Of a stretch of 64,000 bases of DNA, positions 3,422-54,189 are shown piece by piece (within the stretch, counting starts at the first letter, position 1; every line of letters starts with the position of its first letter). Both the position numbers and the translations under genes were made by a program. The notes beneath the pieces were generated by a model, which was given only the letters and a program-made list of their open reading frames with translations, made no database searches and was not told the DNA's origin. The stretch spans positions 4,310-68,309 of the forward strand of contig CAZHOI010000003.1 in NCBI GenBank assembly GCA_964534365.1. The letters are read 5' to 3'. Source of the DNA: an uncultured Candidatus Saccharibacteria bacterium (lineage in GTDB: Bacteria; Patescibacteriota; Minisyncoccia; Phycocordibacterales; SW-6-46-9).

Positions 3422-4756
3422 ATGAAACCAACTCACGTCACAAAACGAGACGGCTCGCTACAGCCTTATAATATTGAAAAAATTACTGCCGTTGCCTTGA
3501 AGGCATTACAGGAAGTCAATGATGAAGTCGGGCATGATCCTGCCACGCTAATCCAACATGCTGAAAAGATTGCCAAACGCACCGAAGAAAAAGTGTTGGT
3601 AATGTGCCGAGCCGCCGCTGCCGCTACCCCCGGCAGCCGCTATGCCAAAATGTGTCAAGACGGCAATCCAGCTGTAGAAGAAATACAGGATTTGGTAGAA
3701 ACCTCCCTCATGGAGCTCGATTTTTTCGAGGCCGCCAAAGCCTTTATAATCTATCGCGACAGCCGCAAGAAATTACGTGAACGATCATTGTTTCGCAAGC
3801 GAACCACCCTCAAGCCTTATGAATACACCGAATTATCTGATTATGTAGATGCGGTTAGACATTCATACTGGGTTCATACTGAATTTTCCTACACTTCAGA
3901 CGTGCACGACTTTAAAACGGGGACTACCTCGGCCGAAGCCAGTGCGATCAAAAATGCCATGTTGGCCATTGCTCAGATCGAAGTAGCGGTAAAAAGTTTT
4001 TGGGGTGATTTGTACAAAAAAATGCCTAAACCAGAAATTGCAGCCGTTGGGATGACTTTTGCTGAATCAGAGGTCCGGCACATGGATGCTTATTCGCATT
4101 TATTAGAAATTTTGGGTCTGAACGCCGAATTCAAAGTGCTGGATCAAGCCCCGGCGATTAAAAAACGGATGAATTATCTGGACAAAGTAGTGCAGCTATC
4201 AAAAACCGAAGACGACGAAACCTATGCCCAATCAATAGCCTTATTCTCGCTATTTATCGAACACGTATCCCTGTTCTCGCAGTTTTTGATTATGATGGCG
4301 TTTAACAAACACAAAAATCAATTTAAAGGTATTTCTAATGCGGTTGAGGCCACGTCAAAGGAAGAGCAAATCCATGGTATGTTTGGCACTGATTTAATCA
4401 ATTTGATCAAACAGGAACATCCGGAATGGTTTGGAGAAGAACATGTCGAAAGAGTTAGGGAAATGTGTCAAGAAGCTTACGAGGCCGAGCTAGAAATTAT
4501 TGACTGGATATTTGAAAAGGGTGAACTGGATTTCTTGCCAAAAGCAGTAGTTGTCGAGTTTGTTAAAAATAGATTTAACCGAGCTCTAGAAGGGATTGGG
4601 CTAACATCCATGTTTACAGTTGATGATGAATTGCTGGCAGAGACAGATTGGTTTGATCAAGAAGTCTTTGCCACCAAACATACCGATTTCTTCTATAAAC
4701 GATCAATCAATTACACTAAACGACAGCAATCAGTCACCACCAATGACTTATTCTAA
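3422..4756 (+). CDS. nrdB: Ribonucleotide reductase class I beta subunit (NrdB/R2) with an N-terminal ATP-cone domain
   Basis: N-terminus VTKRDGSLQPYNIEKI is ATP-cone-like. Ferritin-like di-iron core includes FAESEVRHMDAYSHLLE. Located immediately upstream of nrdA. Confidence 0.85.
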   Translation: MKPTHVTKRDGSLQPYNIEKITAVALKALQEVNDEVGHDPATLIQHAEKIAKRTEEKVLVMCRAAAAATPGSRYAKMCQDGNPAVEEIQDLVETSLMELDFFEAAKAFIIYRDSRKKLRERSLFRKRTTLKPYEYTELSDYVDAVRHSYWVHTEFSYTSDVHDFKTGTTSAEASAIKNAMLAIAQIEVAVKSFWGDLYKKMPKPEIAAVGMTFAESEVRHMDAYSHLLEILGLNAEFKVLDQAPAIKKRMNYLDKVVQLSKTEDDETYAQSIALFSLFIEHVSLFSQFLIMMAFNKHKNQFKGISNAVEATSKEEQIHGMFGTDLINLIKQEHPEWFGEEHVERVREMCQEAYEAELEIIDWIFEKGELDFLPKAVVVEFVKNRFNRALEGIGLTSMFTVDDELLAETDWFDQEVFATKHTDFFYKRSINYTKRQQSVTTNDLF

Positions 4757-49535: not shown

Positions 49536-49991
49536 ATGAATACAATTGATACTAAACGCGGGTTTACTCTAATTGAAATACTATTAGTAGTGGCTATTAT
49601 TGCTATTTTGGCTGGAATTGTAATTTTGGCCATTGATCCGAATCAACAAGCTACTAATCCCAATAACGCCAGGCAACAAGCCGATGTTCAAACCATTCTA
49701 GATGCCGTATATTTATATGCAGTGGATAATGAAGGCGACATTCCTGATGATCCTGGGGAAATTACGACTAACAGAACTGAAATTTGTACTACCAACAGCT
49801 GCGATGGACTAGTTGATTTAAGTGATCTAATTACTGATGGACAATATTTAGCCTCGATCCCGGTTGATCCTGAATATAACGCTGGGGCTGGGGGTAATAA
49901 CCCTAATAGTGCCGGATATAATATCGTTAAAACACTCGATAATCGGGTTACCGTAGCGTCTTGGGATGGAAATGTAATTGCTACCCGATAA
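49536..49991 (+). CDS. Type IV pilin / pseudopilin (prepilin-type N-terminal cleavage/methylation domain)
   Basis: KRGFTLIEILLVVAIIAILAGIV, a class III signal peptide. Confidence 0.8.
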   Translation: MNTIDTKRGFTLIEILLVVAIIAILAGIVILAIDPNQQATNPNNARQQADVQTILDAVYLYAVDNEGDIPDDPGEITTNRTEICTTNSCDGLVDLSDLITDGQYLASIPVDPEYNAGAGGNNPNSAGYNIVKTLDNRVTVASWDGNVIATR

Positions 49992-50072
49992 TGATTTCTC
50001 GATTCAAACTACTTGATAAGTGGTTTTTTTATTGCTTATTTTTGTAATATAGTACAGACTATTGCGTCATAT

Positions 50073-50561
50073 ATGATAGAGCTAGAAAAAAGTTTCAATA
50101 AACTATACGAAGAAAATGCCGATGCCATATTTCGCCTATGTTTATTTAAAACTTCAAATCGCGAAGTAGCTCTAGATCTTTCACAAGACATATTTACTAA
50201 AATGTGGTCATATTTGGCTTCGGGCAAGACAGTCGACAATCAGCGAGCCTTTTTGTTTACTGTCGCGCGCAATCGTATCAAAGACCATTATAAAAAACGT
50301 AAAACTATCACGTTTAGTAAGGCAGGATTGGATAATGTGGCCGAATACCTCTCGGCCGATACGCAGACATCTGATCATTCAGAAATTATTGAATTACTGG
50401 AGACTTTGCAAACGCTACCTGATCATCACGCTGAACTATTGCAGCTCCGATATGTCGAGGGCCTAACTATCGAAGAATTGGCTGAAATATACAATATTCG
50501 AGCTAATACTTTGTCAGTTAAAATCCACCGCATCTTACACAGCCTTCGCAAAAATCTTTAA
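50073..50561 (+). CDS. ECF-type sigma-70 family RNA polymerase sigma factor
   Basis: Region 2 (DLSQDIFTKMW) and region 4 HTH (LTIEELAEIYNIRANTLSVKIHR). Start at the internal MIELEK, with 50013 as the alternative. Confidence 0.8.
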   Translation: MIELEKSFNKLYEENADAIFRLCLFKTSNREVALDLSQDIFTKMWSYLASGKTVDNQRAFLFTVARNRIKDHYKKRKTITFSKAGLDNVAEYLSADTQTSDHSEIIELLETLQTLPDHHAELLQLRYVEGLTIEELAEIYNIRANTLSVKIHRILHSLRKNL

Positions 50562-50562
50562 T

Positions 50563-51636
50563 ATGAAACTACCACAAGATTTCAAAACTTTAAGTAATAT
50601 TAATCTCTCGTCAGACGAGCGAGCGCTTTTGTGGATGCGAATAGAAACCGCTAATCAGAATTTGGATATAAAGAACAGCAATAAACCTCGATTTATCTGG
50701 CTGCGGTATGCCAGCGCGTCTTTGGCAGCTATGGCCACCGGTTTAGTATTATTAATTGGATCGGCTAATGCGTTACCTGGACAACAACTATACTCACTGA
50801 AAACTGGAGTAAATGAACCACTGCAGCGCCTAACCACCTTTGGTTCTGACAATAAAATAGAATTGGAGAAACGACTATTAATAAAAAGGGTAGAGGAAGC
50901 TAAACAGCTTAAAAATCGAGGGCTGTTAGATATCAAAGTTGCTGAAAATATTGAAAACCAGATCAGAGATCAGGCCGGTAAAGCTGTCGCAGGAAAAGAA
51001 GCTGAAAAAAATGAGCTGGATACTAAACCAATAGCAGACAACCCTGATACCCTTGACGATGAAAATGATCAGTCAGAAGAAAAGGCCGCCGCCGAGATTT
51101 CTATTGCCGAAATCAAGGGCACAGCCAGCGGAAGTATCAAGGCAGTTAAATTATTAGCTGGCGAATCAGTTGAGCAGGCTCTTGAATTAGACGATCAGTT
51201 ATCCGGCACTACTGAATTAAATAATGTGACCGATAATAATCAGGAACTATCCAGTGAAATTATAGACTCTGACCTGCTTCAGTCCAGCGAACCACAAAAA
51301 GTCTTAGATGTCGATGAACCGCGATCTCCTGAAAGTAAAGTAGCCAAAACCAAAATTCAGGCCCAGGCCAAAATTGCCACCACCAAAGCAGAGGAGTCAA
51401 ATAAAAAATTAGAAACCTCTAATACCAAGGGTCTTGACGACGGTATTAAAGACAACAAAGCTGTGAACCAAACTAATCGTAATAAGATAATTGAAGTTAA
51501 TAAACAAATTGTTGAATCTGCCAAGCAAGTAGTTGATCAAGACATAGAAATGGTTGGGGAAGAGGAGTTATTAGAAGCTGTAGAATCTGCCTCGGCGGCG
51601 ACAGTTGTGTCGGAAGCCATAAGCTCAGACGAATAG
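50563..51636 (+). CDS. Putative membrane-spanning anti-sigma factor (single TM, acidic coiled C-terminal region)
   Basis: Start is 2 bp after the sigma-factor stop. N-terminal cytoplasmic segment, one TM, then a long extracytoplasmic region. Confidence 0.45.
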   Translation: MKLPQDFKTLSNINLSSDERALLWMRIETANQNLDIKNSNKPRFIWLRYASASLAAMATGLVLLIGSANALPGQQLYSLKTGVNEPLQRLTTFGSDNKIELEKRLLIKRVEEAKQLKNRGLLDIKVAENIENQIRDQAGKAVAGKEAEKNELDTKPIADNPDTLDDENDQSEEKAAAEISIAEIKGTASGSIKAVKLLAGESVEQALELDDQLSGTTELNNVTDNNQELSSEIIDSDLLQSSEPQKVLDVDEPRSPESKVAKTKIQAQAKIATTKAEESNKKLETSNTKGLDDGIKDNKAVNQTNRNKIIEVNKQIVESAKQVVDQDIEMVGEEELLEAVESASAATVVSEAISSDE

Positions 51637-51696
51637 TTATTAACATTACAAATTTAGACAAGTGTACGTTCGTTCGTTTTTTGGTATGATTAGGGA

Positions 51697-52299
51697 ATGT
51701 TAAAAGAAGACCGAATAAATGCATATCAAGACAAGATCATTATCTTTTACAAACAACGTCGACGTATGCCCAGTTATTCTGAAATACAAAAATTAACTCA
51801 CTACCGATCTAAAAGTGGGGTAGTGCGGCTGATCGACAAATTGGAACAGCGACGCTTTTTAAAAAGGGATCGAGGGGGAAAACTGGTGCCAGGATTTAGC
51901 TTTTTTTCAATTCCATTTCCCGGCACCGTCCAAGCTGGATTTCCGTCGCCAGCTGATCAGGGTTACGAAGACCAAGAAAGGATTGATTTGTACTCGTATT
52001 TGGTTAAAAAACCGGCTGACACTTTTATTCACCAAGTAACCGGAGACTCGATGATTAATGTCGGCATATATGACGGTGATTTGGTAATATCGGAACGAAC
52101 CAGCGATTTGCCAATTGGGAAAATTGTAATTGCCGAAGTAAACGGATCGTGCACTATTAAACGGCTACAACAAAATCAATCGGGCCAGATTTATTTGCAA
52201 CCGGAAAATGATGATCATAAAAAAATTTATGCCGATGATGGTCAAGAAATCACCGTACTAGCAATCGTGCGATCAGTAATGCGGCAATTTGATAAGTAA
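51697..52299 (+). CDS. lexA: LexA-family repressor (wHTH + S24 peptidase)
   Basis: N-terminal wHTH (SYSEIQKLTHYRSKSGVVRLIDKLE). Ala-Gly cleavage site VQAGFPSP. Catalytic Ser in GDSM and downstream Lys (TIKRL). Confidence 0.85.
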   Translation: MLKEDRINAYQDKIIIFYKQRRRMPSYSEIQKLTHYRSKSGVVRLIDKLEQRRFLKRDRGGKLVPGFSFFSIPFPGTVQAGFPSPADQGYEDQERIDLYSYLVKKPADTFIHQVTGDSMINVGIYDGDLVISERTSDLPIGKIVIAEVNGSCTIKRLQQNQSGQIYLQPENDDHKKIYADDGQEITVLAIVRSVMRQFDK

Positions 52300-52531
52300 T
52301 TTTATGAAAAACGTTACCAATCAGATAAAAAGCTTGGTTAGAATCTATGATGACGATTATGTTTTGAAAACACCAGACAATAATTCTGTCGTAATTGCTA
52401 GCCGAACTACTAAAACAAAGTTGCCAATTTTTACTAATGATCATATAGGCTTTGTATATTACCTATCACCACCCAAGAATTCTGATTATCCCTGGGGCTA
52501 TGTCAGACTTAGTATCCGCCAAATTAATTAA
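52289..52531 (+). CDS. Small hypothetical ORF (80 aa) positioned where umuD sits in a umuDC operon
   Basis: Stop TAA at 52529-52531, with the next ATG at 52533. No recognisable domain. Confidence 0.35.
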   Translation: MISNFMKNVTNQIKSLVRIYDDDYVLKTPDNNSVVIASRTTKTKLPIFTNDHIGFVYYLSPPKNSDYPWGYVRLSIRQIN

Positions 52532-52532
52532 C

Positions 52533-53813
52533 ATGATTGCTTTGATTGATGCCAACAATTTTTTTGTCTCGTGCGAACGAGCCGTCAACCCAACCCTGCA
52601 GCACCAACCGATGGTGGTACTATCTAACAATGATGGCTGTGTCATCTCTAGGTCAAATGAAGTTAAAGAATTAGGGATACCGATGGGGGCGCCTTATTTT
52701 AAGTATCGAGACAACTTTGAACGCAATAACGTAATCGCTCATTCAGTAAATTTTAGCCTTTATGATCACTTTTCCCGCAAAATAGTCCGGGTGTTGCAGC
52801 AGAACTGCCCACGGGTGCAAGTATATTCTATTGATGAGTCGTTTGTAGTAGTGCCAAAAAACCTATCGAATAAAGCCCTGATAAATTGGGCCGACAAATT
52901 GCGGAAACAAATTTTTAAAGTTACCTGTATACCTGCTTCAATTGGAGTTGCCAATACCAAAACCTTGGCTAAACTTGCTGGTTACACTGCAAAAAAACAG
53001 ACCACAACAGGGCAGGGGGCAGGTATCGCCCTTATTAGTGAAGACAATTTGGATCAAGCGCTAAGTGACACTTTTATCGGTTCGATTTGGGGAATTGGTA
53101 CTAAATTAGCGCACCGAATGCGGCGAGAAGGTATTAAAACTGCTCGTGACTTAGTTAATAGAGATGATGCCTGGATTAGAAGCATGTTTGGAATTGTTGG
53201 GCTGAGGATGAAAGCGGAGTTGATGGGGTCAACTGCCAGCCTAGTAGAAATAGACCAGACTGATCGTCAAGGAATTTCGTCAACCCGATCTTTTGGTCGT
53301 GATGTATGTTCATATCAAGAATTGCTGGCATCACTAATTAAACATGTTGAGGTTGCCAGCCGAAAACTGCGCCGGCAAAATTCAACAGCCGGCAAAATAT
53401 CAATATTCATTCGCACCGGAAAGCACAAAACTGGTCCACAATATTATGGCAAGACAGAGCTATTGTTATTAGTCCCAACTGATAACACCCTTAATTTTAA
53501 CAAGGTGGTGAGACAACTACTGGAATCAGTATACCGACCAGGATTTATATATTATCGCTCGGGGGTATTGCTATCAAATATTGAGCCCAAGGAGAATCAT
53601 CATCCACAATCTAGTTGGTATAAAACCGAGCAGCATCGATACCAGTCCGATACAATGGCTACTATTGACAAACTAAATAATATATATGGTAATAACCATA
53701 TTAGATCAGCTTGTATTCCGAAACAGCCCAGCTGGCAATCCAAATCAAATTTTAAATCATTTCAACAATCATTAAAGGATACAACTAAATTACCAACCTT
53801 ACATATTGTTTAA
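52533..53813 (+). CDS. Y-family DNA polymerase (UmuC/DinB-like translesion polymerase)
   Basis: N-terminus IALIDANNFFVSCE with catalytic acidic residues, then SIDESF and a little-finger region. Confidence 0.85.
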   Translation: MIALIDANNFFVSCERAVNPTLQHQPMVVLSNNDGCVISRSNEVKELGIPMGAPYFKYRDNFERNNVIAHSVNFSLYDHFSRKIVRVLQQNCPRVQVYSIDESFVVVPKNLSNKALINWADKLRKQIFKVTCIPASIGVANTKTLAKLAGYTAKKQTTTGQGAGIALISEDNLDQALSDTFIGSIWGIGTKLAHRMRREGIKTARDLVNRDDAWIRSMFGIVGLRMKAELMGSTASLVEIDQTDRQGISSTRSFGRDVCSYQELLASLIKHVEVASRKLRRQNSTAGKISIFIRTGKHKTGPQYYGKTELLLLVPTDNTLNFNKVVRQLLESVYRPGFIYYRSGVLLSNIEPKENHHPQSSWYKTEQHRYQSDTMATIDKLNNIYGNNHIRSACIPKQPSWQSKSNFKSFQQSLKDTTKLPTLHIV

Positions 53814-54066
53814 ATTAATAATCCCAAATTGGTAGGGGGTAGTAGTCGAGCTAATTATGAATATGTAAAAACTAATATTAACTACGTCGCACAATATATC
53901 TTTTGCGACGTTATGATGAGGTATAAATTTATTAATTAGATTTATATACAACTATTAGGCTCGCCGCGCTATTTACTAATTATAATGCGGTGACATAAAA
54001 TCATTTACTAGTCACTAATTAATAATCTTAATTCACTCTTGTTTATATTCTATAAGTTATGTAAAT

Positions 54067-54095
54067 AAAAACGCTCTACCTTAGAGAGCGTTTTT
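54067..54095. terminator. Bidirectional rho-independent terminator (aaaaacgctct-accttag-agagcgttttt)
   Basis: 11-bp stem with an A-tract upstream and a T-tract downstream. Lies between the convergent umuC-like gene and the small basic ORF. Confidence 0.75.
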
Positions 54096-54189
54096 ATCGT
54101 TTCTTCTTTTTATGACGATCAGCACGTCGACGCTTCTTACGTCGCCTTCGCTTTACTGAACGTTGTTTATTCTTTCGTTTTGTTCCCAT
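54094..54189 (-). CDS. 31-aa Arg/Lys-rich peptide (MGTKRKNKQRSVKRRRRKKRRRADRHKKKKR), candidate bS22-like small ribosomal protein
   Basis: Found by hand translation; it is not in the ORF track. Resembles actinobacterial bS22 ([33 protein letters not shown]). Confidence 0.4.
   Translation of the reverse strand: MGTKRKNKQRSVKRRRRKKRRRADRHKKKKR

Follow-up and report, generated by a model that had tools for sequence, protein, structure and literature searches.

Three co-directional genes lie at positions 51697-53813 of the window, which is the whole stretch of 64,000 nucleotides (nt) analysed here, from a contig of an uncultured Candidatus Saccharibacteria bacterium. They encode an S24 autoprotease/repressor with a helix-turn-helix (HTH) domain, a small protein and a UmuC-type Y-family DNA polymerase:

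51697..52299, + strand: S24 gene, 200-amino-acid HTH and S24 autoprotease/repressor (Pfam Peptidase_S24)
52304..52531, + strand: small open reading frame (ORF), 75 amino acids, stop codon at 52529-52531, member of a clade-specific family
52533..53813, + strand: UmuC-type polymerase gene, 426 amino acids (Pfam IMS and IMS_C)

The S24 gene and the small ORF are separated by 4 nt, and the stop codon of the small ORF (52529-52531) is followed, after a gap of 1 nt, by the polymerase ATG at 52533. The lineage, probably Patescibacteria, occurs in marine (Tara) as well as other metagenomes. Contigs of its relatives measure 0.57-0.81 Mb, and their loci were found through the contigs of the nearest polymerases and the contigs of the small-ORF homologues. 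The order S24 gene, small ORF, umuC was present in the window organism and in each of the eight distinct relatives for which a locus was recovered (L004/L005/L006, L007/L008, L009, L170, L171, L172, L173-175 and L176-178), with S24 proteins of 199-205 amino acids where complete and a middle ORF of 77-81 amino acids. Junctions across the clade range from a 17-nt overlap, found between the S24 gene and the small ORF in L004, to a 12-nt gap; the small ORF and umuC are separated by 0-12 nt or share an ATGA start/stop overlap, the latter in four lineages. This confirms that the tightly coupled unit described in an earlier reading of the window (hereafter the original prediction) is conserved, with the same order and with overlapping or near-abutting junctions.

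The polymerase matched the Pfam domains IMS (PF00817, E=4.1e-34) and IMS_C (PF11799, E=1.4e-17). Its best NCBIfam model was UmuC (NF002955, E=8.1e-84, 282 bits), below the 431-bit cut-off and far ahead of all the DinB models, and DUF4113, whose cut-off is 24 bits, scored 21.9. D6, D101 and E102, the catalytic residues, are invariant in the polymerase and its seven closest homologues (50-57% identity), all of which begin MIALIDANNFF (MIALIDANNFFVSCE). Since seven of seven homologues begin MIALID, the true start is the ATG at 52533, where the original prediction had placed it. Public gene calls start the polymerase at an ATG at 52500 (437 amino acids), which overlaps the small ORF by 32 nt. A polymerase gene that absorbs the small ORF was ruled out, because this upstream ATG is not conserved and all seven homologues start at MIALID.

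The C-terminal region of the polymerase is divergent but conserved within the clade, with a clamp motif, a RecA-NT-like motif and a tail of the form W..KS..KSF.QS....LP.L. Compared with 102 UmuC proteins from the baseline loci introduced below, the layout of this tail is kept and the conserved residues differ; the Pfam match to DUF4113 is lost in the clade and present in all the outgroups. To judge from the sequences, the altered UmuC tail fits a changed partner. In the window protein the β-clamp-binding-like motif of the clade, sQLxL with an invariant Gln, is degenerate and reads PQSSWY (53590-53625, residues ~353-364).

The small ORF most likely starts at the ATG at 52304, with which the Met of the homologues aligns and which gives the 75-amino-acid form found in public databases; the alternative TTG start at 52289 would give 80 amino acids. 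Thus, in the 80-amino-acid ORF abutting the polymerase that had been reported, the stop codon and the 1-nt gap are correct, whereas the length is more likely 75 amino acids. The family comprises ten sequence variants of 75-81 amino acids, which at every recovered locus stand between the S24 gene and umuC. Pairwise identity within it is 15-35%, and its members share the motifs DD[FY]LF, [AI]IVSRS, GF and WGY; Trp64-Gly65, 12 residues from the C-terminus, is invariant. The AlphaFold models of two members (pLDDT, the per-residue confidence score, of 84 and 81) both predict five β-strands and differ elsewhere, one having an N-terminal helix and the other an N-terminus of low confidence and, between strands 4 and 5, a short helix. 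An exhaustive HMMER search of 1.84 billion representatives returned the query itself and one true relative, the three other matches being repeat-driven eukaryotic artefacts, a profile search of 5.8 billion proteins returned nine family members, and a word-index protein search recovered this narrow family alone. In one close pair the ratio of non-synonymous to synonymous substitution rates was ~0.5 for the small ORF (only 7 substitutions), 0.18 for the S24 gene and 0.075 for umuC.

One question is whether the small ORF is spurious, either spacer that encodes nothing or part of the polymerase gene, namely its 5' end. It has no obvious Shine-Dalgarno sequence ahead of it, and gene callers extend the polymerase 33 nt upstream into it. 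However, an intact same-strand ORF of 75-81 codons fills the gap between the S24 gene and umuC in eight of eight relatives, at only 15-35% amino acid identity. By our own estimate (~6.6% stops per random codon, AT-rich DNA) such an ORF arises by chance in any frame with a probability of ~1-2%, which gives ~1e-14 for eight independent cases. The conserved motifs DD[FY]LF, IVSRS, GF and WGY, the pLDDT of 81-84 of the predicted structures and the invariant MIALID start of the polymerase also argue against a spurious ORF. This explanation, to which we assign a negligible likelihood, is effectively refuted: the small ORF is a real gene, kept in synteny by all the relatives examined.

The S24 domain of the 200-amino-acid protein (PF00717 Peptidase_S24, E=3.9e-27) contains the cleavage site Ala80-Gly81 (51934-51939), Ser118 within a GDSM motif (52048-52050) and Lys155 (52159-52161), all of them invariant in six clade members; identity across the clade is 60-73%. 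The sequence around the cleavage site is UmuD-like (VQAGFPSPADQ..RIDL..L..P..TF) and includes a UmuD'-like arm, GFPSPADQ..RIDL (the AGFPSPAD arm), and the protein ends in ITVLAIVRSVMRQFDK, without the WG of UmuD-type proteins. The N-terminal domain (approximately residues 1-70) appears to be a LexA-type winged HTH. A direct Pfam scan gave no match of this domain to PF01726 (LexA_DNA_bind) and only MarR_2 at E=0.012-0.047; a hidden Markov model (HMM) of the clade domain matched 12 LexA-like proteins (E=1e-6 to 5e-3), which are encoded at lexA-umuD-umuC and related loci; the five of these that were scanned all match PF01726, three of them above the cut-off.

The C-terminal domain alone scored 106.6 bits with the NCBIfam UmuD model and 86.7 bits with the LexA model. 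The S24 protein gave 104.8-106.6 bits on UmuD NF007621 (cut-off 110 bits) and 92.9 bits on LexA TIGR00498 (curated equivalog cut-off 110.95), so that by sequence score it is on the UmuD side, yet it passes neither cut-off. For comparison, a genuine UmuD from the Candidate Phyla Radiation (CPR; locus L181) scored 152.9 bits with the UmuD model and 97.4 with the LexA model, and the genuine LexA of the same locus 51.6 and 143.7 bits, respectively. An HMM of the clade C-terminal domain scored UmuD above the LexA-like gene in 13 of the 13 loci holding both in the 160-locus table. In a neighbour-joining tree of S24 C-terminal domains the clade forms its own deep branch, with bootstraps of 56 for the LexA side and 44 for the UmuD side; because of this split, the protein is called here neither LexA nor UmuD, although one source labels it 'repressor LexA'. 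It is best described as a LexA-type repressor with a UmuD-like cleavage and arm region, that is, a hybrid. The identification as LexA (HTH and S24 domains with an Ala-Gly site) therefore holds for the S24 domain, the Ala-Gly site and the Ser/Lys dyad, but not for a plain LexA, since the UmuD model scores higher and the UmuD' arm is kept. Being UmuD-like by score and keeping that arm, the protein may mean that UmuD function is still present in the operon.

The region upstream of the S24 gene contains two predicted control elements:

51662..51677, no strand assigned: predicted operator, GTGTACGTTCGTTCGT, with 2 mismatches to the clade palindrome GTGAAC-N4-GTTCAC
51682..51690, + strand: extended -10, TGgTATGAT, ending 6 nt before the S24 ATG, read from the sequence

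Comparison of the upstream regions of the relatives, the route suggested for defining the LexA box of this lineage, recovered the 16-bp palindrome GTGAAC-N4-GTTCAC, which contains GAAC-N4-GTTC, the Cheo-type (Gram-positive) LexA box. L004, L005, L007, L008, L009, L171, L176 and L177, which are all eight of the relatives' loci that include this region, have one perfect copy each, 20-36 nt upstream of where the S24 gene starts. The palindrome is the best-conserved block of the intergenic alignment, and no perfect copy was found in the other 170 fetched loci (181 loci scanned). The original prediction had stated that there was no canonical SOS box and had noted tandem CGTTCG half-sites. The absence of a box does not stand: GTGTACGTTCGTTCGT is a LexA box with two mismatches (halves GTGTAC..GTTCGT in the window, GTGAAC..GTTCAC in the clade), and the half-sites are part of this degenerate copy. 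The variant is real, since three assemblies of the window organism, independent of one another, carry it unchanged (L001 5359-5374, L002 2408-2423 and L003 924-939), and its two mismatches may mean that the operon is less tightly repressed in the window organism than in its relatives. Elsewhere in the 64-kb window there is no exact GAAC-N4-GTTC, and matches with one mismatch occur at the chance rate.

Within the operon promoter, the operator overlaps both the -35 position and the spacer, with its left half-site at the -35 position, 17 nt from the extended -10; as expected of a LexA, a palindromic operator is thus predicted in silico in the promoter of the repressor gene itself. In the relatives the -10 is TGTATACT, TATAGT or TATTAT, and in every lineage it stands 6-7 nt before the ATG. 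The spans from the -10 to the ATG are 51682-51699 in the window, 2248-2265 in L004, 3124-3142 in L007 and 3125-3141 in L009. With only 6-7 nt between the end of the -10 and the ATG there is no space for a Shine-Dalgarno sequence, and the mRNA from which the S24 gene is translated is probably leaderless or nearly so. The palindrome GTGAAC-N4-GTTCAC is a clean candidate operator for defining the SOS regulon of this lineage.

What stands in the middle position elsewhere was established with a baseline of 160 other UmuC loci from genome and metagenome contig scans; among the matches listed, the best had 38-42% identity and none was a clade member. In the baseline, umuC is usually abutted by the gene of a short UmuD that has 4-45 residues ahead of its S24 core, the two genes being at most 30 nt apart. 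The order lexA-umuD-umuC was found in ten baseline loci and in the CPR Nomurabacteria locus L181, in agreement with the original view that the small ORF occupies the slot where UmuD normally sits. A gene other than an S24 gene in the umuD position was seen in the window clade only. The nearest outgroup polymerase locus, L179 (41% identity), has a called ORF of 104 amino acids (3595-3909) between umuD and umuC; it was rejected as a relative of the small ORF, since it has a low-complexity, membrane-like look and is probably spurious.

Six baseline loci have, at or near umuC, a long UmuD whose N-terminal extension exceeds 70 residues:

L051 4333-4980: long UmuD-type S24 protein
L072 4280-4984: long UmuD-type S24 protein
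L106 830-1471: long UmuD-type S24 protein
L118 1364-2041: long UmuD-type S24 protein
L142 3376-3984: long UmuD-type S24 protein
L156 3031-3843: long UmuD-type S24 protein

These proteins have AGFPSPA and a WGVV C-terminus, a UmuDAb-like architecture outside Acinetobacter. For the five of the six that are in the locus table, the distance to umuC, upstream of which they lie, is 13-154 nt and a separate UmuD is absent, and Pfam gave no DNA-binding domain in the two tested (L051 and L072).

The small protein itself matched no Pfam or NCBIfam family. With eight members searched at E<=10, no Pfam family was matched, PF00717, YolD (PF08863) and DinI included, and the family alignment contains neither GDSM nor a conserved Lys, so that it is not an S24 protein by these marks. 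Outside the family, the best match of its HMM in a database of 14,441 ORFs was a 95-amino-acid truncated UmuD' of locus L012 (E=0.0045):

L012 3113-3400 (Bacteroidota metagenome-assembled genome, JAWXCF010000123.1): truncated UmuD', 95 amino acids, abutting umuC

Among the 40 best sub-threshold matches, 23 were S24/UmuD ORFs, compared with 152 of 13,132 (1.2%) in the database (hypergeometric p ~4e-35; range of the enrichment ~1e-22 to 4e-35), and they align in one register, on a C-terminal WG strand of the form vWGvv..vI. The alignment by hhalign with the C-terminal half of UmuD gave P=0.0057, its score being reached by 2 of 300 column shuffles. In the opposite direction, phmmer searches from the L012 protein placed a member of the small-ORF family (P0124) directly behind the S24 block, at rank 132-150 (E=0.1-0.23). 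The position of the strand also agrees with a described protein: in UmuDAb of Acinetobacter, W192-G193 lies 12 residues from the C-terminus and the C-terminal 12 residues are needed for dimerisation (PMC11332147), and the Trp-Gly of the small protein is at the matching position. Within the cassette, the WG strand is found on the small protein only and the UmuD' arm on the C-terminal domain of the repressor only.

The L012 protein starts with FPSPAADY, as if 'pre-cleaved', and is without the GDSM serine motif and the internal hairpin, so that it looks naturally truncated and catalytically dead; its stop codon overlaps the umuC ATG by one base. Like the small ORF, it is short, has no catalytic Ser, abuts umuC and has a shortened C-terminal core, ending VWGVVTYIIHKV. 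Unlike the small ORF, it keeps the arm (FPSPAADY..LDLN) and is clearly a UmuD (phmmer 1e-22 to 1e-24 to other UmuD proteins). In place of this arm the small-ORF family has a short, poorly conserved N-terminal segment, predicted as a helix in one of the two AlphaFold models. The small protein had been called unrelated to UmuD. This is correct in that it has no Pfam or NCBIfam match and is not recognisable as S24, but it overlooks the weak similarity to the C-terminal core of UmuD.

These results suggest a Pol V-like SOS operon whose small subunit is a degenerate, non-catalytic mini-UmuD, and we consider the chances of this interpretation to be about even. The 75-amino-acid protein would be a remnant of the UmuD' β-core in which the C-terminal WG strand is kept and cleavage site, Ser/Lys dyad and N-terminal arm are gone. 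Several observations weigh against it. The hhalign probability is only 4.6-6.5%, and no single sequence comparison is strongly significant; the reverse comparison, from a UmuD HMM to the small proteins, gives E=11-29, and the UmuD signal is dominated by one C-terminal strand. Foldseek searches of PDB and BFVD gave no significant match, and UmuD' and LexA were not among the 50 matches listed, the best being the Raf1 β-domain (E=0.07) and phage 186 CI (template modelling (TM) score 0.56, E=3.7); a 195-amino-acid phage HTH_XRE protein (TM 0.65) was also found. The small protein evolves much faster (15-35% identity) than UmuC (50-57%) and the S24 protein (60-73%), which is unusual for an obligate subunit, and in the window the clamp motif of UmuC is degenerate and the operator has two mismatches. 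Because the similarity, although reproducible, is weak and neither the reverse HMM nor the Foldseek comparison is significant, UmuD ancestry is at present a leading hypothesis, not established.

The small protein might also be a lineage-specific polymerase accessory without UmuD ancestry, arisen de novo or from an unknown family, with a WG similarity that is convergent or due to chance. The single relative found among 1.84 billion representatives, the nine members returned by the profile search, the absence of a Pfam or NCBIfam match or a significant fold match, and an hhalign probability of at most 6.5% are all in keeping with such an origin. It does not readily explain, however, the enrichment of S24/UmuD proteins in a consistent register (p ~1e-22 to 4e-35), the reciprocal link through the truncated UmuD' of L012 or the place of the gene in the ancestral umuD slot, and we regard it as rather unlikely.

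Membership in one of the small-subunit families already described, that is, a standalone ImuB-C as in the Geobacter lexA-imuB-C-polY operon, YolD/YqjX or DinI/ImpC, is highly improbable. The layout of LexA gene, small β-rich protein and PolY is that of the Geobacter operon (PMC6511836), and ImuB-C is described as β-rich with a conserved C-terminal Trp (PMC3765255). Nevertheless, hhalign against a profile rebuilt from 16 ImuB C-terminal tails (PMC6511836, Table S4), a set to which standalone ImuB-C proteins (GSU0042-like) do not belong, gave P=0.31, with negative HMM scores, and the ImuB-C motifs GPW..ERWW and W.vEg.YD are absent. The eight members likewise had no Pfam match at E<=10 to YolD (PF08863), DinI or any other family, so that the suggested analogy with YolD was not borne out, within the limits of HMMER filters that may drop very weak matches. 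The polymerase, moreover, is UmuC-type and not GeoPolY or YqjW.

If the small protein is a mini-UmuD, the operon could work as follows. A dimer of the S24 protein would bind the GAAC-N4-GTTC-type operator over the -35 and spacer and repress all three genes. After DNA damage, RecA filaments would stimulate self-cleavage at Ala80-Gly81 through Ser118/Lys155, with derepression as the result, and the three cistrons would be translated in a coupled fashion. The 75-amino-acid protein would then assist the UmuC-type polymerase; sitting in the ancestral umuD slot, it would most likely have the C-terminal tail of UmuC, which is clade-specific, as its binding site. In the Pol V model, the C-terminal tail of UmuC binds one UmuD', and the N-terminal arm of the second UmuD' is inserted between the palm and the little finger (PMC12926913, PMC6511836). 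A more elaborate arrangement, which we put forward only tentatively, would divide these two roles: the S24 protein would be the repressor and, once cleaved (G81-K200), also a UmuD'-like arm donor, and a heterodimer with the small protein, formed via the WG strand, would replace UmuD'2, with the small protein on the UmuC tail as a 'split UmuD' mutasome. If so, one cleavage event would trigger both derepression and polymerase activation.

The main rival of the mini-UmuD interpretation places the small protein on the repressor, as a DdrR- or gp7-like co-repressor that would bind the S24 protein, perhaps via the WG strand, and tune its DNA binding or cleavage. There are precedents in DdrR, which acts with the HTH-UmuD repressor UmuDAb, and in phage gp7, which acts with LexA (PMC11332147, PMC7273328). 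The small gene is coupled to the S24 gene too (4-nt gap in the window, 17-nt overlap in L004), its fast evolution would suit a regulatory binder, and the WG strand is the dimer interface in UmuDAb (PMC11332147). On the other hand, the ATGA overlap in four lineages is with the start of umuC, the gene lies in the umuD slot, and the tail of UmuC varies together with the presence of the small ORF. As DdrR is described in the literature, the source of this comparison, its gene is divergent from umuDAb and not between the repressor gene and umuC. We therefore do not favour a modulator, although some likelihood has to be conceded to it.

The wider context of the cassette is kept in the relatives, with a pilin gene, an extracytoplasmic function (ECF) sigma factor gene and a gene for a ~350-amino-acid protein upstream, and an M23 peptidase gene, gltX and murG downstream. 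In every relative with enough contig, the type IV pilin-like gene, the ECF sigma factor gene and the ~350-amino-acid protein gene lie directly upstream of the cassette; the last of these proteins has a weak DUF5667 match and is possibly an anti-sigma factor. The corresponding features are:

window 49536-51636: upstream pilin/ECF sigma/~350-amino-acid protein block
L004 121-2200: the same block
L007 1002-3077: the same block
L009 985-3064: the same block
L176 3261-5340: the same block
window 54065..54097, + strand: candidate operon terminator, 13-bp stem with 4 G-C pairs, between convergent genes (low confidence)

The terminator comes from a consensus scan alone, and the number of such sites is not above the shuffled expectation. 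No recA gene was found among the ten window ORFs scanned with Pfam, and a second S24 gene was seen neither among these ten ORFs nor in the local HMM tables.

Pol V-type mutasomes drive damage-induced mutagenesis, and their small subunits (UmuD', YolD/YqjX, ImuB-C and the SRAP-like ones) are being catalogued (PMC6511836; PMC12926913). These catalogues rest on complete genomes of cultured taxa, and the cassette comes from an uncultured lineage; its architecture, a LexA/UmuD hybrid repressor with a 75-amino-acid, catalytically dead and possibly UmuD-derived protein in the umuD slot, lies outside them. Should the small protein be what is left of the UmuD' core, it would reveal the minimum of UmuD' that the polymerase requires. 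It would, in addition, be a case of an accessory subunit and a regulator exchanging or sharing an S24 domain, in parallel to UmuDAb of Acinetobacter.

The cassette resembles E. coli-type umuDC and lexA-umuD-umuC operons in the catalytic acidic residues, clamp motif, RecA-NT-like motif and C-terminal tail of its UmuC. As in Pol V operons, the S24 protein has a GFPSPA arm in addition to its Ala-Gly site and Ser/Lys dyad, and control by an SOS box is predicted; the small gene abuts umuC and appears translationally coupled to it, in the order seen in L181 and the ten other lexA-umuD-umuC loci. Unlike in umuDC, the middle gene encodes 75-81 instead of ~140 amino acids, without cleavage site, Ser/Lys dyad, arm or S24 recognition by Pfam; the only arm-bearing S24 domain is fused to an HTH repressor; the UmuC tail and its DUF4113 region are divergent; and both UmuC and the S24 protein fall below the NCBIfam cut-offs.

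A second point of comparison is UmuDAb of Acinetobacter, which represses error-prone polymerase genes, self-cleaves and is partnered with a genus-specific protein (PMC11332147, PMC4807011, PMC7273328). The S24 protein is like UmuDAb in architecture (PMC11332147, PMC4807011), a likeness drawn from the descriptions and not from sequence homology. It differs from UmuDAb in its apparently LexA-type N-terminal domain, assigned by transitive homology to PF01726 proteins, and in its compact Cheo-type palindrome, compared with the large, atypical UmuDAb box. The WG strand is on the small protein of the cassette and not on the repressor, and the small gene, placed between the repressor gene and umuC, runs in their direction, whereas ddrR is divergent.

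Finally, the cassette shares with Geobacter lexA-imuB-C-polY and with YolD/YqjX-YqjW the combination of a LexA gene, a small β-rich accessory and a Y-family polymerase in one damage-inducible unit (PMC6511836), and several kinds of polymerase small subunit have been listed (PMC12926913). It is set apart from these systems by a small protein without similarity to the ImuB-C tails tested (P=0.31) or to Pfam YolD, and by a polymerase that is UmuC-type, with a divergent UmuC-like tail.

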